Of a DNA stretch of 26,383 nucleotides, positions 5,000 through 24,389 are shown piece after piece (the stretch's first letter is position 1; the number at the start of each line of letters is the position of its first letter). A model generated the notes under the pieces. That model ran no database searches, was not told the origin of the DNA, and saw only the letters and a program-made list of their open reading frames with translations. A program made the position numbers and the translations under genes. The DNA comes from an uncultured bacterium (GTDB lineage Bacteria > Fidelibacterota > Marinisomatia > Marinisomatales > AB-629-J13), in contig CAZOUJ010000004.1 of NCBI GenBank assembly GCA_964582955.1, positions 1 through 26,383 on the forward strand. The letters run 5' to 3'.

Positions 5000-6250
5000 T
5001 TAACTCCCAGTTGGGTTCCACTTACCCCGGGCAACAGCAGGGATGAAAGATTCAATATCCCGGTTTGGCAGTTGAATCGTCTTGCATTGCTCTGCGCTCA
5101 TATAGGCTGCCATGAGCAATCTTGTGACATCTAGTCCATCATCAAAATTTTCTTGTGGGCGTTTCCCTGCTAAAAACGACTCCACCATATGACGGTTTTC
5201 TGCTGTATAACCATAGACGTCAGTTTCGCTACTGACCACTGGCATTACTCCTGATTCAGCATTCTGCTTTTCTACTAAATCTTCCCCTGAGCTACCAGAC
5301 ACATTGCGGGAAAAAAATACTTTCAAATCTGAATCTAAGGTATTTACAAACATGGAATATTCGGGGCCGAACAACTCCAAACTTAGGCGGAGACCTGCTC
5401 CTACAAAACACCAGGAAGTTGTTGTTTCCACAACCAGTCTATTCCCATTATCATCTGCATACTCCACCAGTGAACGGGCGAAATCTTCAGATGGCTTTTT
5501 AAGATAGTCTGTTTTACCACCGCTGTTTTTAGATAGTATATTTGCATATTTTGGTTGTTGCCATTTTAGTCATGCAGTGTACGCATTTATGCTGAGGGGC
5601 GGCAGGGAGTCCCTGTGCTTTCCAGGTTCTGTCAACATAAAGCGTGCCTCTTCAACCGAGTGGCACATCATATCGTTGAGGACTCCGCCGCCTTGGAGCT
5701 CACCTTCCCAAAACCATGGCATGTGTGGCCCGCTGTGTTCCTCTGCCGCACGAGCCAGATAGGGTCTTCCGGTAGTGGCAGCGCCCCGAGCCCAGATAAT
5801 TTCTTTGCCTCGGGTAACTGAAGGTGCAAAAACCTGATTTTCTAAATAGCCATCCAACAGTCCAGCCTTTTGTGTTAGTTCTAAAACTTTTTTTGCTTCA
5901 ACCACATTACGGCCAAGGGGTTTTTCACATGTAACACCTATAAGTTTTCCTTTACCAGAAATAACAGCCTCAGAGATTTCTTCAAAAGTTTCTATACGTG
6001 TGAAATTTGGAGAGCAGACCCAGAGAGCATCTATTCTCGGATCAGCCACCATATCGGTAATACCATCGTATGCATTTGCATCGCCAACTCCTGCAGTTCT
6101 AGCAAGTTCGGCAGATTCTTCTGCTGATTTTCGTGTGCGAGACATAACACCCACAACATCACAATCCCTGACACCAATCAAAGATTGAATATGGAAACGG
6201 GTGATGAACCCACCACCGATAAACCCTATCCCCAAACGTTTCTTACTCAT
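5000..6250 (-). pseudogene. Gfo/Idh/MocA oxidoreductase interrupted by one in-frame TGA at 5570-5572 (nonsense allele, readthrough/recoding, or sequence error)
   Basis: Tracked ORFs 5570-6253 and 5000-5467 share a frame. The bridge reads ...NAYTA-TGA-LKWQQPKYANILSKNSGGKTDYLKKPSEDFARSLVEYADD... with no other stop. GIGFIGGG Rossmann motif, CEKPLG, GGGVLNDMMCH. ATG 6250 overlaps the MFS stop. Confidence 0.8.
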
Positions 6251-7515
6251 CAAGATTTGGTATCATCTTCGAGCTGGTTGGAAAAAAGAAAGAAAAAGAG
6301 CAGTCCTGTAACCAGGCCAATGGCGGAAAGAGTATACCAGAATCCAGAATAATCAAATATACCAGATGTAGTATAAATTTCCTGCAGATTCCATGAGAGC
6401 CATCCACCAATAACGGGTCCAACACCCAGAATGATAATACCAAAAACAGTTTGTGCTGAATGGCGTACGTCCTCATCAGCAATCTTATCTACATAGATGT
6501 ATGCTGCGGCAAAAAAGAAAGCATAGCAGAATCCGTGAAATGCTTGGCTAAGAACCATGACCCAGACTGGCAGAATGACAGTTCCAAAAATAGCATAACG
6601 TGCAAAATAGGCAAGAACACCGATAAAGATCACTTTTTTAAACCCTAGACGTTTCAAAAAATATCCCAGATATGCCATTGTTACGATTTCCGCAAATTGA
6701 CCGATGGTCATAGCGGGACCGATCTGGCTGTCCTTAATCCCAATATGGGAAAGGAAAGGTCCTGTTTGAAGAAAATAAATTTGGTGGATAATGCTTACTG
6801 CAAGACTGGCAAACACTAAGACAGTAAATGACGAAAAATTAAATAATTCAAATGCTTTCTTGAACGCAAGTTTTTCCACTGCATTCTGTTTAGGAGGTGT
6901 ATGAGGAAGCAGAAAGCAGAAGATTCCATATGCCATGGAAATGATTCCTGAAAATTTAAGTGCATCAGCTAGGCGTGAGGTAACATCAGGAACTTCCGAT
7001 CCAGATATAAAAGGAGGCATCAAATTAAATGATAGATTCTGCTGGAGCCAGATCATTGGGAAAACCCAACTTGCAGCAATCCATCCGATGGTACCCCATA
7101 CCCTGATTTTGGGAAAACTTATTTCTCTGTTTTCAATATGGGCAAATGTTATGGAATTTGATAGAGCCAATGTTGGCATGTATAGAATACTGTATAAAAT
7201 AGAAAGATATAACCAAGCACTGTAGCTGGTCTGATATGAAGTATACCATTTAACCAATCCACCAGTGAAAACCAGAAATGCCAGGATACGTTCCGTACTA
7301 AAATAGCGATCAGCAAACTGACCTGCAATAAAGGGTGCTGCTACTGCTCCGATGGAACCGGCCAACCCAAGGATCATTCCAATCTGTGAACCGCTGAATC
7401 CAAGGCCTCCCTCACTGACAGTAGCAGAAAGATAGCGGGCTGTCACAGGGAGCCAGGCTCCCCACAGTGCATATTGGAGGAACATCATGGATCCTAGACG
7501 AAAGTTTTTAGTCAT
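6250..7515 (-). CDS. MFS transporter, nucleoside:H+ symporter (NupG/XapB-like) family
   Basis: About 12 hydrophobic segments; FLQYALWGAW, GQFADRYF, FPKIRVWGTIGW, MTIGQFAEI, QAFHGFCY motifs. Confidence 0.9.
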   Translation of the reverse strand: MTKNFRLGSMMFLQYALWGAWLPVTARYLSATVSEGGLGFSGSQIGMILGLAGSIGAVAAPFIAGQFADRYFSTERILAFLVFTGGLVKWYTSYQTSYSAWLYLSILYSILYMPTLALSNSITFAHIENREISFPKIRVWGTIGWIAASWVFPMIWLQQNLSFNLMPPFISGSEVPDVTSRLADALKFSGIISMAYGIFCFLLPHTPPKQNAVEKLAFKKAFELFNFSSFTVLVFASLAVSIIHQIYFLQTGPFLSHIGIKDSQIGPAMTIGQFAEIVTMAYLGYFLKRLGFKKVIFIGVLAYFARYAIFGTVILPVWVMVLSQAFHGFCYAFFFAAAYIYVDKIADEDVRHSAQTVFGIIILGVGPVIGGWLSWNLQEIYTTSGIFDYSGFWYTLSAIGLVTGLLFFFLFSNQLEDDTKS

Positions 7516-9974: not shown

Positions 9975-10163
9975 TTATTCAGCCAATATATCTTTCATTA
10001 AATCATAAATACTATTCTCTAAAGGTTCGGTCTTTTCTTCGATTAAAATATGCACATCTGAAAGAATCTGATTTATAAAGGAATCCCTTTTCTCACTTAA
10101 TCCTCTCAAACTAAATTTCGTACCAATTCTACTGTTTTCTTTTTTAAATGAGTTCGAAATCAA
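9975..10163 (-). pseudogene. Possible 3' remnant of a truncated gene (62-codon frame)
   Basis: Protein-like helical sequence (GLSEKRDSFINQILSDVHILIEEKTEPLENSIYDLMKDILAE) with host-like codons, but the TTG start lacks an RBS and overlaps the kynA start head-to-head. Confidence 0.3.
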
Positions 10164-11251
10164 AACAAGTTACATATCAGAATTATTTAAAAATTTCTGA
10201 ATTATTGTCTCTCCAAAAACCTCTCAGCAGTGTAGCAGGAAAACTTGCCCATGATGAGATGCTTTTCATCATTATCCACCAGATCTACGAACTATGGTTT
10301 AAACAAATTCTCCATGAATTGGATTCAGTACTCAATCTCTTTCAAAAAGAATCAATCAATGAACGACATATGGGAATTATTGTCTCCCAATTGGAACGGA
10401 TTATTGTAATTCAGAAAATATTGATCGAACAGATTACGGTTATTGAAACTATGTCTCCGGCAGATTTTCTAGAGTTCAGGGACCTGTTGGCACCGGCATC
10501 GGGATTTCAGAGTATACAGTTTAGGCTTCTGGAAATAAAGATGGGGCTGAAAAAGGGGAAGCGCATTCTTTTTGAAAAGCAGGCATTTTCTAGTGCATTA
10601 GATGTGAAAGAAAAGACAATTCTAGAGGAAGCGGAAAAAGAGCCTTCTCTTTTTGATGGGGTGAACCGATGGTTGGAGCGGACACCTTTTCTTGACTTTG
10701 ACGGATTTAACTTTTGGGACTCCTACCGGAAAGCGGTGGAAGAAAATTTAAAGAAACAGGAGCAGGCTTTTAAGTCTAATCAAATTTCCGATGAGGAAAC
10801 CAAAAGGCTTCAGGACAGATATGAGAATACCAGAAAGAACTTTGATGCTATTGTCAATGAAAAAAAACATGATGAGATGGTAGAAACGGGGCAAAGGGAT
10901 CTTTCCTACAAATCAATGCAGGCAGCCCTCCTTATATTCCTCTACAGAGATCAGCCTGTACTTCATCTTCCATACCGCCTGTTAACCGGACTGATAGATA
11001 TGGACGAATATTTAACATCTTGGAGATACAGGCATGCCCTCATGGCGCATCGAATGATTGGAAGAAAAACCGGAACCGGCGGTTCATCTGGGTATAGTTA
11101 TTTACGTACAACAGTTGAACGGCATAAAGTATTTAGTGATTTTACTAATCTGACAACATTTTTTATTCCTCGATCTAGACTGCCTGTTCTTCCTAAGGAT
11201 ATTCAAAATAAACTGGGATTTTATTATTCTCAATTAAAGGAAAATTCATGA
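10148..11251 (+). CDS. kynA: Tryptophan 2,3-dioxygenase (long, eukaryote-like form)
   Basis: YQNYL, HDEMLFIIIHQIYELWFKQ, FRDLLAPASGFQSIQFR, WRYRH, GRKTGTGGSSGYSYL; 367 aa. Confidence 0.97.
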   Translation: MSSKSKQVTYQNYLKISELLSLQKPLSSVAGKLAHDEMLFIIIHQIYELWFKQILHELDSVLNLFQKESINERHMGIIVSQLERIIVIQKILIEQITVIETMSPADFLEFRDLLAPASGFQSIQFRLLEIKMGLKKGKRILFEKQAFSSALDVKEKTILEEAEKEPSLFDGVNRWLERTPFLDFDGFNFWDSYRKAVEENLKKQEQAFKSNQISDEETKRLQDRYENTRKNFDAIVNEKKHDEMVETGQRDLSYKSMQAALLIFLYRDQPVLHLPYRLLTGLIDMDEYLTSWRYRHALMAHRMIGRKTGTGGSSGYSYLRTTVERHKVFSDFTNLTTFFIPRSRLPVLPKDIQNKLGFYYSQLKENS

Positions 11252-12036
11252 CATTCGATTTTTCAGGAAAAAGAACCGTTGTTTGCGGCAGCACCCAGGG
11301 TATGGGCAAAGCGACGGCATTATTGTTTTCTGAATTAGGTGCAGAGGTAATTCTTATTGCTCGTAACAGGGACTCATTGCAGGATGTCTTATCTGAACTC
11401 TCTACATCCTACGGTCAGACTCATGGAAAATTGTGTGCTGATTTTTCCAATCCAGATGAATTAAATGAGGTAATAAATAATTTTTCCAAGAATAGTTCCC
11501 CGATTCATATTTTGGTGAACAATACAGGAGGGCCTCCACATGGAGAGATCACTCAGGCACAATCAGATGATTTCATAAAAGGATTTAATAAACATTTGAT
11601 TTGCAACCAGTTATTATCTCAGGCATTGATTCCTGGTATGAAGAAAGAAAAATATGGCAGGATTATCAATATTATTTCCACATCGGTAAAACAGCCCATA
11701 AAAGGATTGGGTGTATCAAACACCATCAGAGGTGCAGTAGCAAGCTGGGCAAAGACATTATCCAGTGAATTAGCGCCCTATGGTATTACTGTGAACAATG
11801 TCCTCCCGGGAGCCACCAATACAGAACGCCTTTATTCCCTTTTTGAATCCATTGCTGAAAAAAGAAATGTTTCTTCAGATGAAGTAAAAGCGGAGTGGAT
11901 AAAAGAAATACCTTCAGGACGAATTGCTGAACCAATAGAAATGGCTCATGCCATTGCATTTTTAGCATCCCCATTTGCAGGATACATCAATGGAATAAAT
12001 CTTCCGGTGGATGGCGGCAGGCTTCAATGTCTTTGA
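11248..12036 (+). CDS. Atypical SDR-family oxidoreductase (lacks YxxxK)
   Basis: VVCGSTQGMG, ILVNNTGGP, ITVNNVLPG, GINLPVDGG; the catalytic-motif position reads SNTIR. ATGA overlap with kynA. Confidence 0.9.
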   Translation: MTFDFSGKRTVVCGSTQGMGKATALLFSELGAEVILIARNRDSLQDVLSELSTSYGQTHGKLCADFSNPDELNEVINNFSKNSSPIHILVNNTGGPPHGEITQAQSDDFIKGFNKHLICNQLLSQALIPGMKKEKYGRIINIISTSVKQPIKGLGVSNTIRGAVASWAKTLSSELAPYGITVNNVLPGATNTERLYSLFESIAEKRNVSSDEVKAEWIKEIPSGRIAEPIEMAHAIAFLASPFAGYINGINLPVDGGRLQCL

Positions 12037-12926
12037 TTGAGAAAACCCAGCCCATCCAAACGCCCTACTCCAAATTAACATCACTTTCTGCTGATTATGT
12101 CAGAGAAAAGATGGAATTATTTTTATCAGAAGATAAAAGCAATGAAGATATAACTACCTTCACTACCATCAGTGAAAAAGTTAAAATGAAAGCCAAAATC
12201 ATTACTGAAGAAGATTGTGCGGTTGCGGGGATATCATTTCTGAAGAGTTGTTTTCCGGATGAAATAACTGTAGAAGAAAAAATTAAAGATGGACAACATG
12301 CTCAAAAAAGTGAAGTTTTAGCAACGTGTATGGGTTCAGCAAGAACAATACTTTCCAGAGAAAGAGTCATTTTAAATTTATTGCAAAGGCTTTGCGGCAT
12401 TGCCACGTTAACCCAAAAATATGCAGAGATTGGAAATGGTTTTAATTGCAAAATACTGGATACCAGAAAAATGACACCGGGACTGCGGCTGTTTGAAAAA
12501 TATGCAGTAGCCGTTGGAGGTGGATTCAATCATCGTTTGGATTTAAAGTCTGCAGTATTAATTAAAGATAATCACCTTTTGGCTTCGGGAGGGGTAAGGC
12601 CAGCCTTGAAAAATATAAGTCAGTTGAATGGTTCTGTACCGATTGAATTAGAAGTAGATAGATTGGATCAACTATGGGAAGGTCTGGAATGTGAAATAAA
12701 CGGATTCCTTTTAGATAACATGACCCCAGATGAGATTGTACAGGCAATTGATTTTGTAAAAAACAATTCGATGAATAATGTTTTTTTAGAAGCTTCCGGT
12801 GGAATCACTTTGGAGACATTGAAAGAATATGCTGCAACTGGAATAGAAGCGATATCTGTGGGAGCCTTGACGACAAGTGCAAAAAACATTAATTTGAAAA
12901 TGGAATTCAATAAAGTTTCTGAATGA
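12027..12926 (+). CDS. nadC: Quinolinate phosphoribosyltransferase (nicotinate-nucleotide diphosphorylase, carboxylating)
   Basis: ERVILNLLQRLCGIAT, LDTRKMTPGLR, HRLDL, LIKDNH, LLDNM, EASGGIT, ISVGALT. Confidence 0.96.
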   Translation: MSLIEKTQPIQTPYSKLTSLSADYVREKMELFLSEDKSNEDITTFTTISEKVKMKAKIITEEDCAVAGISFLKSCFPDEITVEEKIKDGQHAQKSEVLATCMGSARTILSRERVILNLLQRLCGIATLTQKYAEIGNGFNCKILDTRKMTPGLRLFEKYAVAVGGGFNHRLDLKSAVLIKDNHLLASGGVRPALKNISQLNGSVPIELEVDRLDQLWEGLECEINGFLLDNMTPDEIVQAIDFVKNNSMNNVFLEASGGITLETLKEYAATGIEAISVGALTTSAKNINLKMEFNKVSE

Positions 12927-14365
12927 AACAAATTTTGAATTTCATCAACGGGGAATTAGTTGCGCCAAATTCGGGTAATTATTTCGACAATACTACTCCA
13001 GTGACCGGGCAAATTTATTCTAAAATTCCTGATTGTGATTCTTCTGATATTGATTTAGCGGTTTCATCAGCAAAGAAAGCCTTTAACTCTTGGAGTAAAC
13101 TTTCTAAGAATGAAAGATATAATCATATCATGCGATTGGCGGATGAGATCGAAGAGCATTTTGATGAATTGGTGGAAGCCGAAAGTAAAGATAATGGTAA
13201 GCCGGAATGGTTAGCCCGCACTGTCGATATTCCCCGTGCCTCGGAAAATTTTAGATTTTTTGCTACAGCATCACTCCATTTTGATTCAGAAATTCACGAA
13301 ATGGATGGCAAAGCTCTGAATTATACTCTACGACAACCCGTGGGTGTGGCGGGTTGTATATCTCCTTGGAATTTACCTCTTTATTTACTCACATGGAAAA
13401 TTGCTCCTGCTCTGGCTGCCGGAAATACGGTAGTGGCAAAGCCCTCTGAAATCACCCCAATGACAGCATTTTTACTCAGTAAGATTTGCCAAAAAGCTAA
13501 TCTCCCAAAAGGAGTATTAAATATTGTTCATGGTTATGGTCATAAGGCGGGGGATGCACTGATTCGCCATCCGGATGTACCAATTATTTCCTTTACAGGG
13601 GGTACGGCAACGGGCGAAAAAATTGCATCAGCGGCGGCACCCATGTTTAAAAAATTATCTCTTGAAATGGGTGGTAAAAATCCCAATATTATTTTTGAAG
13701 ATGCCGACTTTGATAAATCAGTGGATATGGCTATAAGGGCGGCATTCTCGAATCAGGGACAAATTTGTCTGTGTGGTTCACGACTTTTTGTTCAGGAATC
13801 TATTTATGAAAAATTCCGTGGTAATTTTACCAGAAAGACCAAAGAGTTGAAAGTGGGAAGTCCCAAGGAAGATGATAATAATTTAGGTGCGATTGTATCT
13901 AAAGCTCATATGGAGAAAGTCTTATCTTGTATAGAGTTAGCAAAATTGGAGGGCGGCACAATCCTCACAGGTGGAAAGCGCATTATTTTAGAGGGTGAAC
14001 TTTCAGAAGGTTTCTATATTGAGCCAACCGTCATAGACGGTCTCAACTACACTTGCCGAACCAATCAGGAAGAGATTTTTGGACCGGTAGTCTCTATGAT
14101 ACCGTTTTCAACTGAGAAAGAAGTTATTGATATGGCCAACTCTACCAAGTATGGTTTATCTGCAAGTATTTTCACTAAAGATGTAAGTCGTGCCCATCGA
14201 GTTGCATCTGCTATTGACTCCGGGATTGTCTGGGTAAATACGTGGATGCTACGAGATCTACGCATCCCGTTTGGTGGTATGAAAAATTCTGGTGTAGGTA
14301 GGGAAGGCGGATTTAAATCTTTGCAATTTTTTACTGAACCTAAAAATGTGTGTGTGAAAATATGA
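12923..14365 (+). CDS. amnC: Aldehyde dehydrogenase, probable 2-aminomuconate 6-semialdehyde dehydrogenase (ALDH8A1/AmnC-like)
   Basis: ISPWNLPLYLLTWK, FTGGT, LEMGGKNP, NQGQICLCGSR, EEIFGPV, WVNTWMLRDLRIPFGGMK; kynurenine-operon context. Confidence 0.88.
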   Translation: MKQILNFINGELVAPNSGNYFDNTTPVTGQIYSKIPDCDSSDIDLAVSSAKKAFNSWSKLSKNERYNHIMRLADEIEEHFDELVEAESKDNGKPEWLARTVDIPRASENFRFFATASLHFDSEIHEMDGKALNYTLRQPVGVAGCISPWNLPLYLLTWKIAPALAAGNTVVAKPSEITPMTAFLLSKICQKANLPKGVLNIVHGYGHKAGDALIRHPDVPIISFTGGTATGEKIASAAAPMFKKLSLEMGGKNPNIIFEDADFDKSVDMAIRAAFSNQGQICLCGSRLFVQESIYEKFRGNFTRKTKELKVGSPKEDDNNLGAIVSKAHMEKVLSCIELAKLEGGTILTGGKRIILEGELSEGFYIEPTVIDGLNYTCRTNQEEIFGPVVSMIPFSTEKEVIDMANSTKYGLSASIFTKDVSRAHRVASAIDSGIVWVNTWMLRDLRIPFGGMKNSGVGREGGFKSLQFFTEPKNVCVKI

Positions 14366-14781
14366 GTGCAGAAAAAATTATTAGCCAAAATGCACCGGAA
14401 CCTGTTGGAGCATACCCACACGCCCGGAGAGTGGGGGATCTTCTTTTTCTGTCGGGAGTTGGTCCAAGAAAACCAGAGACTAATGAAATCCCCGGTCTTG
14501 TATTTGATGAGGCTGGAAAAATAATTGATTATAACATTTCTGAACAGTGTCACTCTGTTTTTAAAAATGTTTGTTCTATACTGGAAGCATCAGGCAGTAA
14601 GTGGGAAGATTTGGTGGATGTAACTGTTTTTCTCACCAATATGAAAAATGATTTTGAAACCTACAATAAGATTTATGCTGAATATTTCAAGGAAAATCAA
14701 CCGTGCCGCACAACCGTGGAAATTACCTCTTTGCCCACACCCATTGCCATTGAATTGAAATGTATAGCTGAACTAAAATGA
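14362..14781 (+). CDS. RidA/YjgF-family protein, probable 2-aminomuconate deaminase
   Basis: APEPVGAYPHA, LFLSG, QPCRTTV (conserved Arg), IAIELK. Start ATG 14362 overlaps the ALDH stop (ATGA). The deaminase role is inferred from context. Confidence 0.85.
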   Translation: MSAEKIISQNAPEPVGAYPHARRVGDLLFLSGVGPRKPETNEIPGLVFDEAGKIIDYNISEQCHSVFKNVCSILEASGSKWEDLVDVTVFLTNMKNDFETYNKIYAEYFKENQPCRTTVEITSLPTPIAIELKCIAELK

Positions 14782-14809
14782 ATTACAATTTAGGACAAAG
14801 GTTGAAATT

Positions 14810-15328
14810 ATGAAATTGCCAATAAATTTCAATGATTGGATTGAAAACAACCGTCATCTATTAAAACCTCCTGTTGGAAATCAGGTTGTATACAAGGACA
14901 CTGAATTTATAATTATGGTTGTAGGTGGTCCTAACAAACGTAAGGACTACCATGTTGATATAGCGGAAGAATTTTTTTATCAATTAGAGGGAGATATGAT
15001 ATTGAAAATTATTGAGTCAGGTGAATTTAAAGATATCCCAATCAGAGAGGGTGATATTTTCCTTTTACCACCAAATATTCCCCATTCTCCTCAAAGATTT
15101 ACTGATACTGTTGGTTTAGTTATTGAACGTCAGAGAAAGACCGGAGAGTTAGATGGATTCAGATGGTATTGTGATTCCTGTGAGACTTTATTGTATGAAA
15201 AATTTATTCAATTAACTGATATTGTAACACAACTTCCCCCACTGTTTGAAAATTATTGGAGTGAAGAATCAAATCGTACCTGTAAAAATTGTGGAGAGAT
15301 TCAACAACCTCCAGAAAAACAATCATGA
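14810..15328 (+). CDS. nbaC: 3-hydroxyanthranilate 3,4-dioxygenase
   Basis: LLKPPVGN, VGGPNKRKDYH, EEFFYQLEGDM, PHSPQR, and rubredoxin-like CDSC...CKNCG. Confidence 0.97.
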   Translation: MKLPINFNDWIENNRHLLKPPVGNQVVYKDTEFIIMVVGGPNKRKDYHVDIAEEFFYQLEGDMILKIIESGEFKDIPIREGDIFLLPPNIPHSPQRFTDTVGLVIERQRKTGELDGFRWYCDSCETLLYEKFIQLTDIVTQLPPLFENYWSEESNRTCKNCGEIQQPPEKQS

Positions 15329-16344
15329 TAAAAATTGATATCCATACTCACATTTTACCTCGGGCATGGGAAGACCTCGAACAAAAATATGGATATGGAG
15401 GATGGGTTCAGCTTCACCATAGAAAAAATGGATGCGCTATGATGGTTAGAGATGGCTTTGATTTTAGAGAAGTAAAACCAAATACATGGGATCCGATGGT
15501 TCGGTTAAAAGAATGCAATCAACAGTCCGTAGATGTTCAGGTACTCTCAACTGTCCCTATAATGTTCAGTTATTGGGCAAAAGCAGAGGACACATATGAT
15601 TTATCAAAATTTCTCAATGATGATTTGGCTCAGACCATAGCACAATTTCCACATCGTTTCATTGGACTGGGGACAATCCCCATGCAGGAGTCAAAATTGG
15701 CGGTGATGGAGCTTGAGAGATGTATGAACCAATTGCATTTTAGAGGAGTTCAGATTGGAACAAATATAAACGGAAAAAATTTGAACGAACCTGAATTCTC
15801 AGATTTTTTCAGTGTTGCTGAGTCTCTGAATGCTTCTATATTTATCCATCCTTGGGATATGATGGGTGAAACGGATATGCAAAAATATTGGCTTCCCTGG
15901 CTTGTGGGAATGCCTGCGGAAACATCCAGAGCGATTTGCTCTATTTTGATGGGCGGAGTTCTTGAAAAATTCCCCAATCTGAAAATTGCTTTTGCTCATG
16001 GAGGAGGGTCATTTCCTGGCACATTAGGTCGAATTGAACACGGATTTAAAGTGAGACCAGATTTATGTGCAGTGGATTCATCGAATAATCCTGCGTCATA
16101 TTTAGGAGAATTTTGGGTTGATTCACTAGTTCATGATGGGTATTCGCTTGAAAACATTGTCAAAATATTTGGTGAAGATAGAGTTACACTTGGAACAGAT
16201 TATCCGTTCCCACTTGGAGAAAAAAATCCTGGAGAATTAATAGAAAACATGAATTTTTCAGAATCACTTCATTCAAAATTGGTTGGAGAAAACGCATTAA
16301 ACTGGCTGGGCATGAAACGATCCGATTTTATAACGGTAGAATAA
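15325..16344 (+). CDS. nbaD: Aminocarboxymuconate-semialdehyde decarboxylase (ACMSD)
   Basis: IDIHTHILP, FIHPWDM, WLVGMPAET, AHGGGSFP, GTDYPFPLGE. Start ATG 15325 overlaps the nbaC stop. Confidence 0.93.
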   Translation: MIKIDIHTHILPRAWEDLEQKYGYGGWVQLHHRKNGCAMMVRDGFDFREVKPNTWDPMVRLKECNQQSVDVQVLSTVPIMFSYWAKAEDTYDLSKFLNDDLAQTIAQFPHRFIGLGTIPMQESKLAVMELERCMNQLHFRGVQIGTNINGKNLNEPEFSDFFSVAESLNASIFIHPWDMMGETDMQKYWLPWLVGMPAETSRAICSILMGGVLEKFPNLKIAFAHGGGSFPGTLGRIEHGFKVRPDLCAVDSSNNPASYLGEFWVDSLVHDGYSLENIVKIFGEDRVTLGTDYPFPLGEKNPGELIENMNFSESLHSKLVGENALNWLGMKRSDFITVE

Positions 16345-17160
16345 ATGGATAGTTTTATCCATGTGGGTAAACACCGATTTCAGGTAGATTTATGCTCTCC
16401 AATTGATATATCCATTCCGGTTGATTTTGAGGGAGACCAATTAAACTATTTTAATGTCCAAGGTTCACAATCCAGACCATATGAAATCGAAAACATAAAG
16501 GGGAGTACTCTTCTTGGTGGCGGATGTAATTTTGATATTGTATCTATCATTCCACACTGTCACACCACACATACTGAGTGCGTAGGCCATATAGTAGATG
16601 AGTCAATTTTAATAAATAGTTTTGCTCTAAATGGACTGAAATCAGCTTATGTCATTTCAATTACTCCTGAGAATGATTTGGAAAAAAGAGAAAAACTATC
16701 CGAATATCATTGTTCAACTGATAAAGTTATTACTGGTGGGATGATCGAGAATGAAATAGGGGATTTAGATTTTCCTGTTGAGGTACTGGTTGTTCGTACT
16801 CTTCCCAACTCTAATGAAAAACTTACAATGAAGTATAATAGAAAAAACATTCCTCCATATTTTTGCTTATCCGCAATTGAGGTCATCAAAAAATTAAATA
16901 TTAGCCATCTCTGCATAGACCTACCTTCCCTTGATAGAGCAATTGATGGTGGAAGCTTATTAGGACATCATTTATTTTGGGATATTCCAATGAATACACA
17001 CTCACTTTCACAAAAACAACCTTCAACTTCAACAATTACTGAATTAATTTTTGTTCCAAATGAAATTAAAGATGGGAATTATTTTATCAATCTTCAGGTA
17101 GCAAATCTATCACTGGATGCATCTCTTTCGCGTCCAGTTCTCTATCCAATTCTTACATGA
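16345..17160 (+). CDS. kynB: Cyclase-family protein, probable kynurenine formamidase (Bacteroidetes-type)
   Basis: PIDISIP, HCHTTHTECVGH (variant of HxGTHxDxPxH), IDLPSLD, HHLFW, TITELIFVP, LDASLSRPVLY; lies directly upstream of kynU. Confidence 0.82.
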   Translation: MDSFIHVGKHRFQVDLCSPIDISIPVDFEGDQLNYFNVQGSQSRPYEIENIKGSTLLGGGCNFDIVSIIPHCHTTHTECVGHIVDESILINSFALNGLKSAYVISITPENDLEKREKLSEYHCSTDKVITGGMIENEIGDLDFPVEVLVVRTLPNSNEKLTMKYNRKNIPPYFCLSAIEVIKKLNISHLCIDLPSLDRAIDGGSLLGHHLFWDIPMNTHSLSQKQPSTSTITELIFVPNEIKDGNYFINLQVANLSLDASLSRPVLYPILT

Positions 17161-18410
17161 ATTTTTCCTACAAGGAATCCTTTGCTCACAAGATGGATGA
17201 GCAGGATTCGTTAAAAAAGTTCCGGAATAAGTTTCATATTCCCCCCGCAGATCAAAGAGATCAGTCTATTTATTTTTGCGGTAATTCACTGGGGCTCCAA
17301 CCAAAAAATGCAGAAAAATATATCCAACAAGAAATAGATAACTGGAGATTGATGGGAGTAAAGGGTCACACAAAGGGAGACACCCCTTGGTTGCCATATC
17401 ATGAATTACTGACTGATTACACCTCCGAGCTTGTAGGGGGCTTGTCCTCTGAAGTGGTTGTTATGAACTCACTGACAGTAAATATTCATTTACTTATGGT
17501 TTCTTTTTACCGGCCAACTAACAAACGTTATAAAATTCTTATTGAAGACCATGCTTTTCCTTCCGATCGATTTGCTCTTGAATCACAAGTTAGGTTCCAC
17601 GGATTCAGTCCAGATGAAGCAATCGTTACTATGAAATCGGGATCCAGGAAACAGTGTATAACGACGGATGAAATTTTAGATTATATCAATAGGAATAAAG
17701 ATAATCTGGCAATGATATTTATGGGGGGAGTAAATTATTTCACGGGCCAAGTATTTGATATGAAAACTGTAACTGAAGCGGGACATAGTGCAGGGTGTAT
17801 TGTTGGGTTTGACCTGGCGCACGGGGCTGGAAATATTATTCTTGAACTACATGATTGGAATGTTGATTTTGCAGCATGGTGTAGTTATAAATATTTAAAC
17901 GGTGGTCCTGGTAGTCTTTCAGGTGTATTTATTCATGAGAACCATCATGGTAATAACAAACTGCCACGCTTTAATGGATGGTGGGGGCATAATAAAAATA
18001 CTCGTTTTAACATGGGAAATTCATTTGATTCTCTTAGCGGAGCGGAAGGTTGGCAATGTTCCAATCCGCCCATTTTTCCTCTGGCGTCCCTGCGAGCGTC
18101 CATGGAGTTATTCCACGCCGCAGGAATAAAGTCACTGAGAGAAAAAAGTAAACTGCTTACCGACTATTTATCTTTTCTACTGAACGATCTTCCATTGGAA
18201 AATATTACTCCGCTTTCCCCTAAGGAAAAAGGATGTCAGCTATCAATTATTTTAAAGAGAAGGGGTAGAGAAATTTTTCAGGAATTAGCTCAAAAAGGGG
18301 TGGTCGCAGATTGGCGAGAACCGAATGTTATTCGCATTGCTCCTGTCCCATTTTACAATACATTTTATGAAGTGTGGAAATTTTCTAAATTATTAAAAGA
18401 AGCGATGTGA
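17157..18410 (+). CDS. kynU: Kynureninase
   Basis: YFCGNSLGLQP, VVMNSLTVNIH, FDLAHGAGN, WCSYKYLNGGPG (PLP Lys), GWWGH, DWREPNVIRIAP. Confidence 0.97.
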   Translation: MNFSYKESFAHKMDEQDSLKKFRNKFHIPPADQRDQSIYFCGNSLGLQPKNAEKYIQQEIDNWRLMGVKGHTKGDTPWLPYHELLTDYTSELVGGLSSEVVVMNSLTVNIHLLMVSFYRPTNKRYKILIEDHAFPSDRFALESQVRFHGFSPDEAIVTMKSGSRKQCITTDEILDYINRNKDNLAMIFMGGVNYFTGQVFDMKTVTEAGHSAGCIVGFDLAHGAGNIILELHDWNVDFAAWCSYKYLNGGPGSLSGVFIHENHHGNNKLPRFNGWWGHNKNTRFNMGNSFDSLSGAEGWQCSNPPIFPLASLRASMELFHAAGIKSLREKSKLLTDYLSFLLNDLPLENITPLSPKEKGCQLSIILKRRGREIFQELAQKGVVADWREPNVIRIAPVPFYNTFYEVWKFSKLLKEAM

Positions 18411-19768
18411 AATCGAGTGGGAATGAAAAAATAACCGTTGTTGGGGGAGGATTATCCGGTCCGGTTATGGCAATGTATCTTGCCAAAAAAGGAATTAGGG
18501 TTGACATATATGAGCGCAGACCAGATATGCGCAAAGAAAATATCTCCGCTGGGAGGTCTATCAATCTGGCGATTTCAAAACGGGGAATCGCGGCCTTGGA
18601 AGAGATAGGAGTTTTTCACCAAATATCTTCCCGATTAATTCCGATGTATGGGAGAAAGATTCACGATATAGATGGGAATAATCGGTTTTTGTCCTATGGA
18701 AGATCTGATCAGTATATTAACTCTGTTTCCCGTTCTGAACTGAATATTCTATTAATGACGGAAGCGGAAAAGACCGATCAGATACGTTTTTTATTCCAAC
18801 ATAGCTGTAGTGGAATGGATTTGGAATCAGGGACTGTTTTTTTTAATAATGAGGTTAATGGAGATCAGAAAACTCTACAAGGAACTCCGGTAATTGCTGC
18901 AGACGGATCTGGTTCTGCAGTGAGAGAATCCATGATAGAAAGTGGACATATATCTGGATCGTTTGACCCTCTTGGACATTCATACAAGGAGCTATCTATT
19001 CCTCCCGATAAATCTGGCGAATTTCAATTGGACCCAAATGCTCTGCACATTTGGCCCCGAGGTAAATTTATGCTTATTGCACTGCCAAATATGGATGGGT
19101 CATTCACTGTGACATTGTTTTTACCAAATACCGGAGATATAAGCTTTGCCACTATCAGATCTCTGGACGATCTTAATATTTTTTTCGAGAAATATTTTCC
19201 GGACGTTCTTGAGTTCATACCTAATTTGGAAATTGATTTTTTTTCAAATCCAACAGGAAAACTTGGAACAGTTAGATGTTCTCAATGGAATGTGAATGAA
19301 TCAGTTCTCATTGGTGATGCGGCTCACGCAGTGGTGCCTTTTTTTGGGCAGGGTATGAATGCTTCCTTTGAAGATTGCACTGTTTTGAACAAAATGATAG
19401 GTAACAGTAATGATTGGAAGAAATTATTTGAATCATTTTCAAAAAAAAGAAAAATAGATGGGGATGCCATTGCAGATATGGCTTTAGAGAATTATATTGA
19501 AATGAGAGATTCAGTCAACAACGATAGATTTCTGAATCAAAGAGACTTGGAAAGACAACTGGAAATAAAATACCCAGATCAATTTATTTCACGATATGCG
19601 ATGGTGTCATTTCATCAAATTCCATATTCTATTATTCAGGAACGGGGTAAGATTCAACAGGAAATACTCGATTGGATCATTGAGAATAACAGTGCAGATA
19701 TACCTGTGTCAGCTGAAACAATAGAAAAAGAAATCAAATCTAAACTTTCAGTTTTACCATTATTATGA
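18407..19768 (+). CDS. kmo: Kynurenine 3-monooxygenase
   Basis: VGGGLSG, GRSINLAIS, YKELSIP, NALHIWPRG, IGDAAHAVVPFFGQGMN. GTG start overlaps the kynU stop. Confidence 0.96.
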   Translation: MKSSGNEKITVVGGGLSGPVMAMYLAKKGIRVDIYERRPDMRKENISAGRSINLAISKRGIAALEEIGVFHQISSRLIPMYGRKIHDIDGNNRFLSYGRSDQYINSVSRSELNILLMTEAEKTDQIRFLFQHSCSGMDLESGTVFFNNEVNGDQKTLQGTPVIAADGSGSAVRESMIESGHISGSFDPLGHSYKELSIPPDKSGEFQLDPNALHIWPRGKFMLIALPNMDGSFTVTLFLPNTGDISFATIRSLDDLNIFFEKYFPDVLEFIPNLEIDFFSNPTGKLGTVRCSQWNVNESVLIGDAAHAVVPFFGQGMNASFEDCTVLNKMIGNSNDWKKLFESFSKKRKIDGDAIADMALENYIEMRDSVNNDRFLNQRDLERQLEIKYPDQFISRYAMVSFHQIPYSIIQERGKIQQEILDWIIENNSADIPVSAETIEKEIKSKLSVLPLL

Positions 19769-20031: not shown

Positions 20032-20949
20032 ATGTATAATAATTACAGAACGATATTTCAAGAAAAAATAGACGCTGAAATAAAAATTGAGCCAAAAGAC
20101 TGGATGCCGGACAAATACCGAAGTCATCTTATTCGGCAGATTTCACAGCATGCCCATTCGGAAATTATCGGTATGCAGCCCGAAGGTAATTGGATTACCC
20201 GTGCACCTACTCTCCGGGCCAAAATGGTGCTCATCGCTAAGGTTCAAGATGAAGCTGGCCATGGTTTATATCTTTACAGCGCCACAGAGACTTTAGGTAT
20301 AACCCGGAGTAAACTGATTGAGCAACTTCAGTCTGGAAAAGCTAAATATTCCAACATTTTTAATTACCCTACGCTTACTTGGGCTGATATAGGTGCCATT
20401 GGCTGGCTAGTGGACGGAGCAGCAATTGTAAATCAGCAGTCATTACGAAAAACTTCCTATGGCCCCTACTCCAGGGCCATGATTCGCATTTGTAAAGAAG
20501 AGAGTTTTCATCAACGCCAAGGGTATGAAATCATGTCTAAAATGGCAAATGGAACTCCTGAACAACAGGAAATGGCTCAGGATGCTCTCAACCGCTGGTG
20601 GTGGCCATCTCTCATGATGTTTGGTCCCCATGACTCTGATTCAGCGCACTCCTCCATTGCTATGAAGTGGAAGATTAAGCGAAATACCAATGATGAGCTG
20701 AGACAGATTTTTGTAGATCGAACGGTAAAACAAGCAGACTTAATTGGATTGAAAATTCCAGATGATAACCTGAAATGGAATCCCAAAAAAAAGCATTATG
20801 ATTTTGGAGATATTAATTGGGATGAATTCTGGGATGTGATTAGCGGGAATGGATTTTGCAATAGGGAGCGGATGAGTAATCATATCAACTCACACAAAGA
20901 AGGTAAATGGGTAAGAGAAGCAGCATTGGCTTATGCAAAAAAAATATAA
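20032..20949 (+). CDS. paaA: 1,2-phenylacetyl-CoA epoxidase catalytic subunit A
   Basis: [46 protein letters not shown]. Confidence 0.97.
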
Positions 20950-20961
20950 ACGGAAATAAAA

Positions 20962-21249
20962 ATGAGTAAAAACGAACTGCCTTTATGGGAAGTCTTTATA
21001 CAGCCCAAAACAGGAGTCCAGTTTCAACACGCTGGCTCTTTACATGCAGCTGATAAGGAAATGGCTCTTCAGAATGCAAGAGATTTATACACCAGGAGGC
21101 AGGAAGGTACCTGTATATGGGTGGTAAAAGCTGAACATATTGTTTCTTCAAATTCAGAAGACAGAGAACCCTTTTTCGATCCTGCAGATGATAAAGTATA
21201 CCGATATCCCACCTTTTTTAAGGTGTCCAAAAAGGCTAAAGGGTTGTAA
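20962..21249 (+). CDS. paaB: 1,2-phenylacetyl-CoA epoxidase subunit B
   Basis: PLWEVF, HAGSLHAADKEMALQNARDLYTRRQEG, DKVYRYP. Confidence 0.96.
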   Translation: MSKNELPLWEVFIQPKTGVQFQHAGSLHAADKEMALQNARDLYTRRQEGTCIWVVKAEHIVSSNSEDREPFFDPADDKVYRYPTFFKVSKKAKGL

Positions 21250-22004
21250 TGGCTAAAGATGATCTTTTTATATATGTGTTAGCGCTGGGAGATGACGCCC
21301 TCATTTTAGGGCAAAGGTTATCTGAGTGGGCATATAAGGCTCCTTTCCTGGAAGAAGATATTGCTCTCAGCAATATATCCCTTGACATGTTCGGCAGGGC
21401 TAATCTTTATCTGGAATATGCGACTTCTCTAAATGGGGGAGATACCACAGCGGATGATCTGGCCTTTAAACGCAATGAGAGGGAATTCACCAACCATCTT
21501 TTATGTGAACAGCCCAATGGAAATTTTGCCGACACCATGGTGCGTCAATTTTTCCTGGATGTCTTTAACAAATTATTTTTAGAGAAGTTAATTGAAAGCA
21601 ATAACAGTCAGCTTTCAGCTATTGCCCAGAAATCAATAAAGGAAACTAACTATCATTTCCGTCATTCTTCTAAGTGGATTATTCGGCTCGGATTCGGTAC
21701 ACCAGAAAGCCATACAAAGGCCCAATCTGCAATCAACAATTTATGGTTGTTTACGGAAGAATTGTTTGAAATGAACAAAAACGATATTCAAATTGCAGAT
21801 CAGAATATTGGTGTGGACTGTAGAGAGCTGAAGCCTGCATGGAATAATACTGTAAATAATATATTCGCAGAAGCCACTCTTAATAGGCCTGAAGACGGAA
21901 ATATGATAACTGGAGGAAGGCAAGGAATTCACACTGAACACTTGGGTCATATACTTTCAGATATGCAGTATCTCCAACGGGCATATCCGGATGCTAAATG
22001 GTAA
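21249..22004 (+). CDS. paaC: 1,2-phenylacetyl-CoA epoxidase subunit C
   Basis: LGDDALILGQRLSEW, LEEDIALSNI, KETNYH, GRQGIHTEHLG, MQYLQRAYPDAKW. Confidence 0.96.
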   Translation: MAKDDLFIYVLALGDDALILGQRLSEWAYKAPFLEEDIALSNISLDMFGRANLYLEYATSLNGGDTTADDLAFKRNEREFTNHLLCEQPNGNFADTMVRQFFLDVFNKLFLEKLIESNNSQLSAIAQKSIKETNYHFRHSSKWIIRLGFGTPESHTKAQSAINNLWLFTEELFEMNKNDIQIADQNIGVDCRELKPAWNNTVNNIFAEATLNRPEDGNMITGGRQGIHTEHLGHILSDMQYLQRAYPDAKW

Positions 22005-22453
22005 AAGATATTTCAACTGATACAATCTGGGGAATACTGAAAATGATTCCTGATCCTGAAATCCCTGCTATTTCAATAGTAGATTTAGGTATCATTAGGG
22101 ATGTTAAATATGATGACGACATGTTTAATATAACCATTACTCCAACCTATATTGGTTGTCCAGCCATGTCATTTATAAAAGAAGAAATTATTTATAATAT
22201 GGAATCACAGGGTGTTATAAATTACCAAGTCAAAACATCTTTAGCACCTCCTTGGACGACGGATTGGATGAGTGACGAAGTAAAAGCCAAACTGAAGGAT
22301 GCAGGTATAGCACCTCCGTCAAAAAATGTTATTTGTCCGCAATGTGATTCTATGAAAGTAGAGGTCATCAGTAATTTTGGTTCAACTGCTTGTAAGGCCC
22401 TGTACAAGTGTCTTTCATGCGCTGAGCCTTTTCATCATTTTAAACAGTTTTAA
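21998..22453 (+). CDS. paaD: 1,2-phenylacetyl-CoA epoxidase subunit PaaD (assembly factor)
   Basis: DPEIPAISIVDLG, TPTYIGCPAM, WTTDW, CPQC...FGSTACKALYKC..C.EPFHHFK. Confidence 0.95.
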   Translation: MVKDISTDTIWGILKMIPDPEIPAISIVDLGIIRDVKYDDDMFNITITPTYIGCPAMSFIKEEIIYNMESQGVINYQVKTSLAPPWTTDWMSDEVKAKLKDAGIAPPSKNVICPQCDSMKVEVISNFGSTACKALYKCLSCAEPFHHFKQF

Positions 22454-22458
22454 GGCGG

Positions 22459-23229
22459 ATGATTCAGTTTAAAAAAATAGAAGCCGTTGCAAAAATTACC
22501 CTTAATCGCCCAGAAAAATACAACTCGTTTGTGCGGGAGATGGCACTTGAGTTACAAAATATAATGGATGAGTGTGGTCAGGATGAAACAATCCGAAGTA
22601 TATTGATTACAGGAGCGGGGAAGGCTTTTTGCGCTGGTCAGGATTTAAAAGAAGCAATTAATCCAGATGGCCCTGAAATTGAAGAAATTGTTCGGCAGCA
22701 TTATAATCCCATTATACAGAAAATCAAAGGGATTGAAAAACCGGTAATTGCTGCGGTGAATGGTGTAGCAGCTGGAGCAGGTGCAAATCTGGCCTTGGCA
22801 TGTGATATTGTAGTGGCAGCAAAGTCTGCAAGTTTTATACAGGCTTTCAGTAAGATTGGACTTATCCCGGACAGTGGTGGTACTTACTTTCTTCCTCGTC
22901 TTATTGGACTACCTAAAGCAGCAGCCATAATGATGACGGGTGAAAGTGTCATCGCAGAAAAAGCTGAATCACTGGGAATGATTTATGCCGTATATGAAGA
23001 TACTGAATTTGAAAACAGTGCAATGAAACTGGCAAAAACAATTGCATCCATGCCCACAAAGGGATTGGGATATACCAAAAAACTACTATCCCAAACGTTT
23101 AATAATTCATTAAATGAGCAGCTCAGCGTGGAAGCTGAAACCCAAGCATTGTCTGCAGCTACTGAAGACCATAAAGAAGGTATTCGGGCATTTTTGGAAA
23201 AACGGACACCACATTTTACGGGGAAATGA
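22459..23229 (+). CDS. paaG: Crotonase-family ring-1,2-epoxyphenylacetyl-CoA isomerase
   Basis: LNRPEKYNSF, FCAGQDL, GVAAGAGANLALACD, FSKIGLIPDSGG (Asp type, PaaG-like); paa context. Confidence 0.88.
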   Translation: MIQFKKIEAVAKITLNRPEKYNSFVREMALELQNIMDECGQDETIRSILITGAGKAFCAGQDLKEAINPDGPEIEEIVRQHYNPIIQKIKGIEKPVIAAVNGVAAGAGANLALACDIVVAAKSASFIQAFSKIGLIPDSGGTYFLPRLIGLPKAAAIMMTGESVIAEKAESLGMIYAVYEDTEFENSAMKLAKTIASMPTKGLGYTKKLLSQTFNNSLNEQLSVEAETQALSAATEDHKEGIRAFLEKRTPHFTGK

Positions 23230-24389
23230 AACAAAAAATATCTATCATTGGTGCTGGGAACATGGGCACAGGCATTGCCCAGGTTGCAGCAACATATGGA
23301 GCTTGTGTCACCCTAATAGATACCTCACAGGAAGCGATAAAACGCTCAAGGGCCAGTCTTCATTCAGTTATGAATCGCTTAGTAGAAAAAGAAAAATTAA
23401 GTCCGGAGGAATCGGGAGCAATCTTATCAAGAATTCAGTGGACCAATGAAATCGGAAGTGTTGCTGATAGCAAATTGGTTATTGAAGCAGTGATTGAAAA
23501 TATGGAAGTAAAACAGAAAACATTTTCGGATGTTGAATCTTTGGTTTCAAATGACTGTATCATTTCCACTAACACTTCATCACTGTCAGTAGAGGGAATC
23601 GCTTTATCATGTTCTAATCTTAAAAGGATTATAGGTATTCATTTTTTCAACCCGGTGCCTTTAATGAAGTTGGTGGAAGTAGTTCCGGTAGAGCAGACAG
23701 AACCTAGTTTAATAGAAAACGTTAAATCAATCTTGCAAGGCTGGGGAAAGACCGTTGTAATAGCAAAGGATACACCGGGGTTTATTGTAAATAGGGTTGC
23801 TAGACCGTTTTATGGCGAAGCACTTAGGATTTATGATGAAGGCCTTGCAGATTTTGCAACTATTGACTGGGCTATGAAGGAATTTGGAGGATTCAAAATG
23901 GGACCATTTGAACTTATGGATTATATTGGAAATGATGTGAACTATAATGCAACGGAATCTGTTTATATTGGAACAAACTATAACCCTCGTTATAAACCGT
24001 CACCTACCCAGAAAAAGATGGTGGATGAAGGATTGTTGGGCAGGAAATCAGAGCAAGGATATTATGATTATTCAAATGGTGCCGCAATTCCAAAACCTGC
24101 TGCAGATGAAGAATCCGGTAAAAAAATATTTAAGCGAATTCTGGCAATGCTCATTAATGAAGCAGCTGATACATTGAATCTTGCGATTGCATCCCGCGAT
24201 GACATTGATATAGCCATGACTACAGGCGTGAACTATCCTAGAGGATTGCTAAGATGGGCAGATGAGATAGGAGTTGATTTGATATTTCAACAGCTCTGCA
24301 AACTCAAATCTGATTTAGGTGACGAGCGCTATAGACCGAGTCCTTTATTGATAAAAATGGTAAAGGAGAACAGGACCTTTTACGCATGA
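23226..24389 (+). CDS. paaH: 3-hydroxyacyl-CoA (3-hydroxyadipyl-CoA) dehydrogenase
   Basis: IIGAGNMGTGIA, STNTSSLS, GIHFFNPVP, PGFIVNRVARPFYGEA, MGPFELMD, duplicated C-terminal domain. Confidence 0.9.
   Translation: MKQKISIIGAGNMGTGIAQVAATYGACVTLIDTSQEAIKRSRASLHSVMNRLVEKEKLSPEESGAILSRIQWTNEIGSVADSKLVIEAVIENMEVKQKTFSDVESLVSNDCIISTNTSSLSVEGIALSCSNLKRIIGIHFFNPVPLMKLVEVVPVEQTEPSLIENVKSILQGWGKTVVIAKDTPGFIVNRVARPFYGEALRIYDEGLADFATIDWAMKEFGGFKMGPFELMDYIGNDVNYNATESVYIGTNYNPRYKPSPTQKKMVDEGLLGRKSEQGYYDYSNGAAIPKPAADEESGKKIFKRILAMLINEAADTLNLAIASRDDIDIAMTTGVNYPRGLLRWADEIGVDLIFQQLCKLKSDLGDERYRPSPLLIKMVKENRTFYA

Follow-up and report, generated by a model that had tools for sequence, protein, structure and literature searches.

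Kynurenine operon and the SDR gene

The stretch of DNA analyzed here (the window) comprises positions 1 to 26,383 of the forward strand of contig CAZOUJ010000004.1, from the uncultured bacterium GCA_964582955.1 (Fidelibacterota; Marinisomatia), and the gene in question encodes an SDR (short-chain dehydrogenase/reductase) in which the catalytic tyrosine of the family is absent. The SDR gene (11248-12036, + strand; PF13561 5e-41, PF00106 3e-34) is an intact open reading frame (ORF) of 262 amino acids, an NADP(H)-type protein and candidate ene-reductase, and it is the second gene of a ten-gene + strand string that extends from tryptophan 2,3-dioxygenase (TDO) to kynurenine 3-monooxygenase (KMO) at 10148-19768. 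The start codon of the SDR gene (ATG at 11248) and the TGA with which TDO ends (11249-11251) overlap in the arrangement ATGA, and the nadC ATG at 12027 gives a 10-nt overlap with the end of the SDR gene (stop codon 12034-12036). An earlier note on this DNA had described an SDR translationally coupled between TDO (kynA) and nadC, with SNTIR at 11716-11730 and a CGxxxGMG cofactor motif, and had proposed that it forms 2-oxoadipate. The coordinates, coupling, and motifs were all found to be correct, and the SDR gene genuinely belongs to the kynurenine operon; the observation was confirmed and its interpretation partly supported.

The other nine genes of the operon, all on the + strand, could each be assigned by Pfam and NCBIfam matches or by family together with position, as had been claimed. 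TDO (10148-11251) is of the long, eukaryote-like form, matching the long eukaryote-type Pfam model PF03301 over its full length (1e-110, 370 bits) and the bacterial model TIGR03036 at only 176 bits (cut-off 391). Downstream of the SDR gene are quinolinate phosphoribosyltransferase NadC (12027-12926; TIGR00078, 271 bits, above cut-off), an aldehyde dehydrogenase of the 2-aminomuconate/2-hydroxymuconate semialdehyde dehydrogenase type (AMSDH; 12923-14365; TIGR03216, 586 bits, under the cut-off of 693), and a RidA-family protein (14350-14781; PF01042 1e-28, TIGR00004 107 bits), which by analogy with the validated Burkholderia and fungal 2-aminomuconate deaminases of the same family is a probable 2-aminomuconate deaminase. 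These are followed by 3-hydroxyanthranilate 3,4-dioxygenase (HAO; 14810-15328; TIGR03037, 254 bits, above cut-off), an ACMSD-type amidohydrolase (15289-16344; PF04909 2e-42), a KynB-type cyclase/formamidase with a weak family match (16345-17160; PF04199, 28.7 bits), kynureninase (KYNU; 17157-18410; TIGR01814, 441 bits), and a KMO-type FAD monooxygenase (18407-19768; PF01494), the last assigned from its family and operon position. In agreement with the earlier note, none of the tautomerase, decarboxylase, hydratase, or aldolase genes of the oxalocrotonate route was found anywhere in the window.

Elsewhere in the window there are RtcB, a sugar-oxidoreductase cluster, and a paa operon. A GFO/IDH/MocA oxidoreductase on the - strand (5000-6253) appears to be split between two ORFs (5570-6253 and 5000-5467). 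The paaABCD operon (20032-26016) begins 264 nt after KMO and is accompanied by enoyl-CoA hydratase, 3-hydroxyacyl-CoA dehydrogenase, thioesterase, and thiolase genes; the latter three enzyme types could also be used on crotonyl-CoA derived from glutaryl-CoA.

Active site of the SDR

The SDR fold was recognized from the Pfam matches, the glycine-rich motif CGSTQGMG, NNTGG at the position of the NNAG motif, and an AlphaFold2 (AF2) model of the protein (pLDDT 88.7). The cofactor motif C13-G-S-T-Q-G-M-G20 (11284-11307, + strand) is a variant of TGxxxGxG and is followed by R39 after strand beta-2; V12, C13, G14, S15, G18, G20, and R39 were invariant in a 30-sequence alignment. The catalytic region departs from the classical Asn-Ser-Tyr-Lys tetrad, the four positions of which read H116, S144, S157, and R161. 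H116-L-I-C-N120 (11593-11607, + strand) lies on the helix of the classical catalytic Asn, S144-T-S-V-K148 (11677-11691, + strand) contains the catalytic-Ser position and a conserved Lys, and S157-N-T-I-R161 (11716-11730, + strand) replaces Y-x-x-x-K exactly 13 residues past S144.

Conservation of this site was determined in an alignment of 81 sequences (the SDR and its orthologues at 80 loci, 55-96% identity, from species-representative genomes and biased to the closest relatives). Neither Tyr nor Lys was present at the motif in any of the 81, in all of which R39, H116, S144, T145, S146, P150, S157, N158, T159, R161, W167, K169, T170, E174, R194, and R225 were invariant; H59, N120, V147, and K148 were each kept in 80. 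Scanning 1.8 billion cluster representatives gave 122 full-length matches, among which S...R at the motif was kept in 113, down to 33% identity, and His at position 116 marked the nearer half. Because the S...R pair is retained at such distances, the alignments identify the SNTIR site as a feature of a large, selected clade of Tyr-less SDRs, neither a chance substitution nor the product of a decayed gene. We predict that the SDR is a functional NADP(H)-dependent enzyme of this clade, in which S-N-x-x-R stands for Y-x-x-x-K.

The orthologues carry generic database names (“SDR family oxidoreductase” or “3-oxoacyl-ACP reductase”), and no NCBIfam model reached its own cut-off on the SDR. The best of the FabG models gave 147 bits against a cut-off of 222, and TIGR01830 gave 125 against 298.

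Nearest characterized relatives

Known structures were ranked by a profile built from 30 orthologues for the PDB and by Foldseek with the AF2 model for the fold. The profile placed Burkholderia SDRs (5VA8, 5VPS, 5IDX), 6JH7 (AerF, 7e-59), TM1169, APE0912, and BacG/YwfH (1e-45) before any FabG or ketoreductase. The S-N-x-x-R motif itself is shared with the 5VA8 group and TM1169, which are among the top PDB matches. The best Foldseek matches were 6JH7, 6JHA, and 6JHB, all AerF of Microcystis (template modeling (TM) score ~0.9), with BacG at 0.91 and a range of 0.89-0.92; Burkholderia SDRs were also among the top fold matches, and the near structures were all solved with NADP(H). One of the AerF structures, 6JHB, holds 4-hydroxyphenylpyruvate.

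BacG is reportedly an NADPH-dependent SDR that delivers hydride onto an olefin conjugated with a 2-oxo acid (dihydro-hydroxyphenylpyruvate). In 2020 work cited in PMC10143770, AerF is given as an NADPH-dependent C=C reductase with an unsaturated 2-oxo acid as its substrate. Judged by profile and fold, the characterized homologues closest to the SDR reduce the C=C bond of unsaturated 2-oxo acids, which is in line with the earlier suggestion that an SDR without the catalytic Tyr would suit C=C reduction.

Linkage to kynurenine genes

Gene neighborhoods were surveyed by tblastn of the window proteins on the 80 orthologue loci. Kynurenine genes were located beside the SDR gene in about 62 of them, which by their record titles belong to Bacteroidota, Ignavibacteria, a Pirellulaceae metagenome-assembled genome (MAG), Calditrichota, and Marinimicrobia, such that the linkage seen in the window recurs elsewhere. 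Gene order varied: Ignavibacteria have TDO-SDR-(DUF4286)-AMSDH, Cytophagales have HAO<>SDR-AMSDH together with KYNU and KMO, Marinimicrobia have SDR-NadC-KYNU, KynB<>SDR-AMSDH also occurs, and the Pirellulaceae MAG and Calditrichota show other orders. The commonest neighbor was AMSDH (~46 of 80 loci), usually just downstream on the same strand, and a RidA-type deaminase gene was also present in several of the clusters. Twelve loci without local kynurenine context formed three nested clades on the SDR tree, and three of five genomes with a context-free SDR carried HAO and ACMSD elsewhere. Among Ignavibacteria genomes, ACMSD was found in five of five and HAO in four of five.

Co-occurrence was determined in a sample of 200 genomes from the phylum (190 of which reach 90% completeness or more with contamination of 5% or less), the same set being used for every search. 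SDR orthologues were accepted at 275 bits or above (paralogues scored 222 or below) and were found in 53 genomes, compared with 33 for ACMSD, 30 for HAO, 30 for AMSDH, and 42 for TDO. An SDR orthologue was present in 29 of the 33 ACMSD-positive genomes. Two others (G105 and G106) carry orthologue-grade fragments severed by a contig end right after TDO, where absence is an assembly artefact, and with these fragments the SDR accompanies ACMSD in 31 of 33 genomes and 19 of 20 genera. The assemblies of the remaining two (G135 and G136) are broken at the same place. The expected association with ACMSD across genomes was thus observed.

A gene of ~100 amino acids with a DUF4286 domain (PF14114) lies between SDR and AMSDH in 21 of the 80 loci, mostly of Ignavibacteria (for example, L004:10761-11129 and L005:10831-11142, directly after the SDR orthologue), and is absent from the MAG to which the window belongs. 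Modeled by AF2 (pLDDT 95.7), the protein adopts a dimeric alpha+beta-barrel fold resembling those of EthD, SnoaB, OAC cyclase, LsrG, and methylmuconolactone isomerase. No sequence match was obtained in the PDB, and the fold places DUF4286 only in the broad DABB superfamily of such barrels. DUF4286 may act on 2-hydroxymuconate as a cofactor-free tautomerase or isomerase.

Fate of 2-aminomuconate

Within the kynurenine pathway, the last part still poorly defined is what happens to 2-aminomuconate. A preprint of June 2026 (10.64898/2026.06.05.730449) reports that human ASPDH reduces 2-aminomuconate to 2-aminohex-3-enedioate, not to 2-oxoadipate, that fungi, like Burkholderia, use a RidA-family 2-aminomuconate deaminase that Metazoa do not, and that in eukaryotes the presence of the deaminase and that of the reductase exclude each other; an SDR is not mentioned in it. 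The statement in the earlier note that the reductase gene is not firmly assigned is therefore outdated for Metazoa, and it still holds for the step after deamination to 2-oxoadipate, which is gene-less, “oxalocrotonate reductase” being only a placeholder on pathway maps. Our literature search turned up only the preprint on ASPDH, the legend of a review figure, and a paper on Aspergillus mentioning an SDR syntenic with the fungal cluster, and it yielded no gene named for an oxalocrotonate or 2-oxohex-3-enedioate reductase. The same preprint overturns the idea of a fully eukaryote-like tryptophan route in this bacterium, because Metazoa use ASPDH, which makes 2-aminohex-3-enedioate, and no RidA-type deaminase; the deamination step of the operon resembles that of fungi and Burkholderia.

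The oxalocrotonate-decarboxylase route was sought beyond the window. In the MAG as assembled (76.5% complete), neither a DmpG communication domain nor a tautomerase nor a DmpH-type protein was found, so that the decarboxylase route was not seen elsewhere in the genome either. Its two FAA-hydrolase proteins were considered as DmpH/MhpD and neither was of that type. In the 200-genome sample, the DmpH/MhpD family was detected in four genomes, never over cut-off, and in one of the 33 with ACMSD; the decarboxylase/hydratase family is nearly missing throughout the sample, too rare there for an anticorrelation with the SDR to be tested. The single ACMSD-positive genome with a gene of this family (G021) is of the same genus as the window. 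Its contig L081 (C108:1-5722) carries catechol 2,3-dioxygenase, a 347-amino acid protein, an HAD protein, an MhpD/DmpE/DmpH-like protein, a second HAD protein, two RidA proteins, and the 5' part of HAO. The contig might represent either a strain variant or a second locus. In the same genome, a four-helix-bundle gene of the 23S rRNA intervening-sequence type is located inside the kynurenine operon, between RidA and a 3' HAO fragment (L082:1496-2318; G021:C87).

A clear orthologue of glutaryl-CoA dehydrogenase (GCDH) was found in the MAG; as a discriminator GCDH was discarded as uninformative, being present in 134 of the 200 sampled genomes. By their gene content, these organisms make 2-aminomuconate, probably deaminate it by RidA, and are without the textbook route onward, and a single conserved gene of the cluster, with ene-reductases of 2-oxo acids as its relatives, is left without an assigned step.

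Proposed reaction and its significance

The reading that we prefer has as its basis the conserved atypical site, the kynurenine linkage, the missing decarboxylase route, GCDH, and the homology to C=C reductases. Under this reading, the SDR is a candidate NADPH-dependent C=C reductase that would convert 2-oxohex-3-enedioate to 2-oxoadipate and that probably has a wider range of substrates, and we give this reading a probability of roughly 0.45; the substrate, the product, and the roles of the catalytic residues are what we infer. ACMSD, the aldehyde dehydrogenase, and the RidA-type deaminase would supply 2-hydroxymuconate/2-oxohex-3-enedioate. The SDR would then deliver hydride from NADPH onto the double bond that is in conjugation with the 2-oxo-acid group, with a proton donor drawn from the constellation of H116, K148, S157, and R161, and the resulting 2-oxoadipate would proceed through glutaryl-CoA (GCDH) to crotonyl-CoA. 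The proposal of the earlier note that 2-oxoadipate is formed stands to this extent, being favored by the linkage, by the homologues, by GCDH, and by the loss of the decarboxylase route from nearly all genomes with both ACMSD and the SDR, and it does not stand as a sole role for the enzyme.

More tentatively, the proposal can be widened. The SDR would be an oxalocrotonate (2-oxohex-3-enedioate) reductase with a new His/Ser/Arg site, many Bacteroidota and Ignavibacteria would degrade tryptophan via 2-oxoadipate and glutaryl-CoA in place of the decarboxylase/aldolase branch known from bacterial textbook pathways, and DUF4286 of Ignavibacteria would be the matching 2-hydroxymuconate tautomerase; we hold this wider version to be plausible, short of an even chance.

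If the proposed reaction is correct, the automatic “FabG” annotation of many orthologues would be corrected, and a second bacterial lower pathway would exist for carbon from tryptophan, 3-hydroxyanthranilate, and possibly 2-aminophenol or nitrobenzoate. A new catalytic constellation would also be added to the SDR ene-reductases.

Orthologues without the lower pathway

Several observations weigh against the proposed reaction. Of the 53 SDR-positive sampled genomes, 21 are without HAO, ACMSD, and AMSDH and have an intact SDR, and when KYNU and KMO were searched, KMO was found in none of these 21. Loci were retrieved for 20 of them. Three species (G087-G089) have TDO-SDR-KYNU with overlapping stop and start codons (for example, L106:5978-9107 of G088) and gave no Pfam match to a cyclase-type KynB; two genomes (G061, G062) have SDR-KYNU, one (G059) has SDR-NadC-KYNU like the Marinimicrobia locus L040, and one (G108) has TDO-SDR. 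These remnant clusters without lower-branch genes are found at L105-L108, L089, L090, and L091, and their hosts are streamlined relatives. In fourteen of the 21 the SDR stands alone among ProC, M19 dipeptidase, Rpe, Tkt, or FolD, and the neighbors of lone copies overall (these five together with MgsA, DUF5687/ABC, RNase H, and RadA) gave no metabolic clue. Lone copies in two genera had dN/dS of 0.06-0.15, indicating purifying selection, because of which they are judged to be functional in genomes unable to make 2-aminomuconate. More distant SDRs with H116 and SNTIR (41-47% identity) are not beside kynurenine genes either, and the distant clade members P0135, P0154, and P0160 have heterogeneous contexts. 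To these points are added that gene absences from a MAG of this completeness are weak evidence, that related genomes in the sample are not independent (co-occurrence is therefore given without a P value), and that the Lys/Tyr pair to which catalysis is ascribed on the alpha-E helix of AerF and BacG is not conserved, the SDR having H116 and N120.

Membership in kynurenine clusters was thus observed as adjacency and co-occurrence, and the SDR is present beyond genomes with the lower aminomuconate branch. Because 21 genomes without that branch keep the SDR intact, reduction of 2-oxohex-3-enedioate cannot be its only role, and because orthologues persist in this way the SDR probably also accepts other unsaturated oxo-acids. 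Its retention in streamlined genomes without the pathway is a warning that the role of the enzyme may extend further than one would gather from the operon.

Residue changes in the remnant copies favor the proposed reaction. H116 and K148 were lost only in remnant clusters without the lower pathway: Leu was found at position 116 in the copies of G087-G089, G108, G093, and G094, and those of G087-G089 also have Asn at 148, while the other 14 retrieved remnant or lone copies keep H116. The pattern suggests altered or relaxed catalysis after loss of the lower branch. In one genome (G085) the SDR adjoins an ACMSD pseudogene fragment. The SDR is not the only gene to outlast an eroded pathway singly, because a lone intact TDO survives in another genus: at L109-L111 (G115, G117, and G118) a solitary intact TDO was found with no other kynurenine gene within 7 kb, and these genomes yielded no SDR, HAO, ACMSD, or AMSDH.

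Alternative explanations

The retained copies could also be explained if the SDR were an ene-reductase of general or “damage-control” type that is linked to the upper pathway, with a protective or salvage role and not the main carbon flow. Carboxyketoalkenes form spontaneously from kynurenines in eye-lens chemistry, and the substrate might be a reactive alpha,beta-unsaturated oxo-acid arising each time TDO opens tryptophan, for example, the carboxyketoalkene from spontaneous deamination of kynurenine or 3-hydroxykynurenine, or another common unsaturated oxo-acid. Such a role would fit the TDO-SDR-KYNU operons of three species without KMO, HAO, ACMSD, AMSDH, or a Pfam cyclase-type KynB, the SDR-KYNU and SDR-NadC-KYNU arrangements, and the purifying selection on lone SDRs, and homology to C=C reductases fits it equally well. 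However, AMSDH, not TDO or KYNU, is by far the commonest neighbor, the TDO-SDR-KYNU copies without H116 and K148 look like a changed or decaying enzyme and not an ancestral role, the lone SDRs are without any kynurenine source, and the bacterial occurrence of the carboxyketoalkene is conjecture. We consider this explanation unlikely, though it deserves to be kept in view.

A lower probability is given to direct reduction of 2-aminomuconate by a bacterial analogue of ASPDH/AMR, in which the enamine or imine would be converted to 2-aminohex-3-enedioate or 2-aminoadipate, the product being later transaminated to 2-oxoadipate. NAD(P)H-dependent reduction of 2-aminomuconate to a stable product exists in animals (10.64898/2026.06.05.730449), the SDR usually adjoins the dehydrogenase that makes 2-aminomuconate, and no ASPDH homologue was found in the MAG (no PF01958 (Asp_DH_C) match). 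Against this, the RidA-type deaminase gene that this operon and several of the orthologous clusters contain argues that deamination comes first, and deaminase and reductase exclude one another in eukaryotes (10.64898/2026.06.05.730449). No aminotransferase was found in the clusters, the protein has SDR domains only and not the aspartate dehydrogenase fold of ASPDH/AMR (Asp_DH_C, NAD_binding_3), and retention of the SDR without the lower pathway is equally a problem for this explanation.

It is improbable that the SDR reduces the carbonyl of a 2-oxo acid by means of a His/Arg pair (H116 and R161), as in lactate and D-2-hydroxyacid dehydrogenases, to give a 2-hydroxy acid such as 2-hydroxyadipate or an aryl-lactate. 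His and Arg are indeed invariant at the classical Asn and Lys positions, and the 4-hydroxyphenylpyruvate bound by AerF in 6JHB indicates that 2-oxo acids fit the family pocket, but no characterized member of the clade is known to be a carbonyl reductase, and the 2-hydroxy acid would be a dead end for the encoded pathways, with no cluster gene to use it. Still more remote is a FabG-like 3-oxoacyl-ACP reductase or housekeeping SDR placed in the operon by chance, which accords with the database names and with lone copies among housekeeping genes but not with the absence of the catalytic Tyr and Lys, FabG scores far under their cut-offs, presence in only 53-55 of 200 genomes, and repeated kynurenine adjacency in several phyla and in different gene orders. 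Replacement of KynB by the SDR, considered for the TDO-SDR-KYNU genomes without the Pfam cyclase, was rejected, since KynB and SDR genes occur together in the window and in most clusters and since conservation extends to the NADP site.

Comparison with known systems

The reduction of 2-oxohex-3-enedioate proposed here was compared with known lower pathways. The bacterial nba, amn, and Burkholderia pathways have HAO, ACMSD, the semialdehyde dehydrogenase, and a RidA-type deaminase upstream in common with the operon, and they differ downstream, as neither the window nor the MAG as assembled nor 32 of the 33 ACMSD-positive sampled genomes have their decarboxylase, hydratase, and aldolase genes, with the SDR in their place. 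Human ASPDH likewise performs an NAD(P)H-dependent reduction just after 2-aminomuconate, with hydride going to a conjugated system (as proposed for the SDR); it is of an unrelated fold and family, acts on the amine to give 2-aminohex-3-enedioate, and in eukaryotes excludes the RidA-type deaminase that is present here.

Among SDRs, the best sequence matches (1e-60 to 3e-52) were structural-genomics entries from Burkholderia (5VA8, 5VPS, and 5IDX-5IDY), Thermotoga (TM1169, 1O5I), and Aeropyrum (APE0912, 2Z1N). The Burkholderia and Thermotoga proteins have the S-N-x-x-R motif in common with the SDR, and the Burkholderia entries were crystallized with NADP(H), whereas all three groups have Asn or another residue at position 116 and are without H59, H116, and W167. 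We know of no link of these proteins to kynurenine genes. BacG/YwfH of Bacillus subtilis (3U49/3U4C) ranks above all FabGs in the profile and has a TM score of 0.91, but its identity to the SDR is only 26% and its context is antibiotic (bacilysin) biosynthesis. The catalytic residues of BacG reportedly lie on the helix that carries H116 and N120 in the SDR. Because the catalytic Lys and Tyr positions are His and Asn here, the mechanism of AerF and BacG is not simply transferable to the SDR.

AerF differs from the SDR in having K and Y at the H116 and N120 positions, N at R161, and G at S144, and in acting in secondary metabolism on a cyclic dihydro-hydroxyphenylpyruvate, compared with the open-chain dicarboxylate in catabolism proposed for the SDR. 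The two have in common the SDR fold, 31-32% identity, the NADPH cofactor, the absence of Tyr at the classical position with Ser at the position of S157, and the residues S146, K148, P150, and R194, and AerF acts on a 2-oxo acid that bears a conjugated C=C, as is proposed for the SDR.

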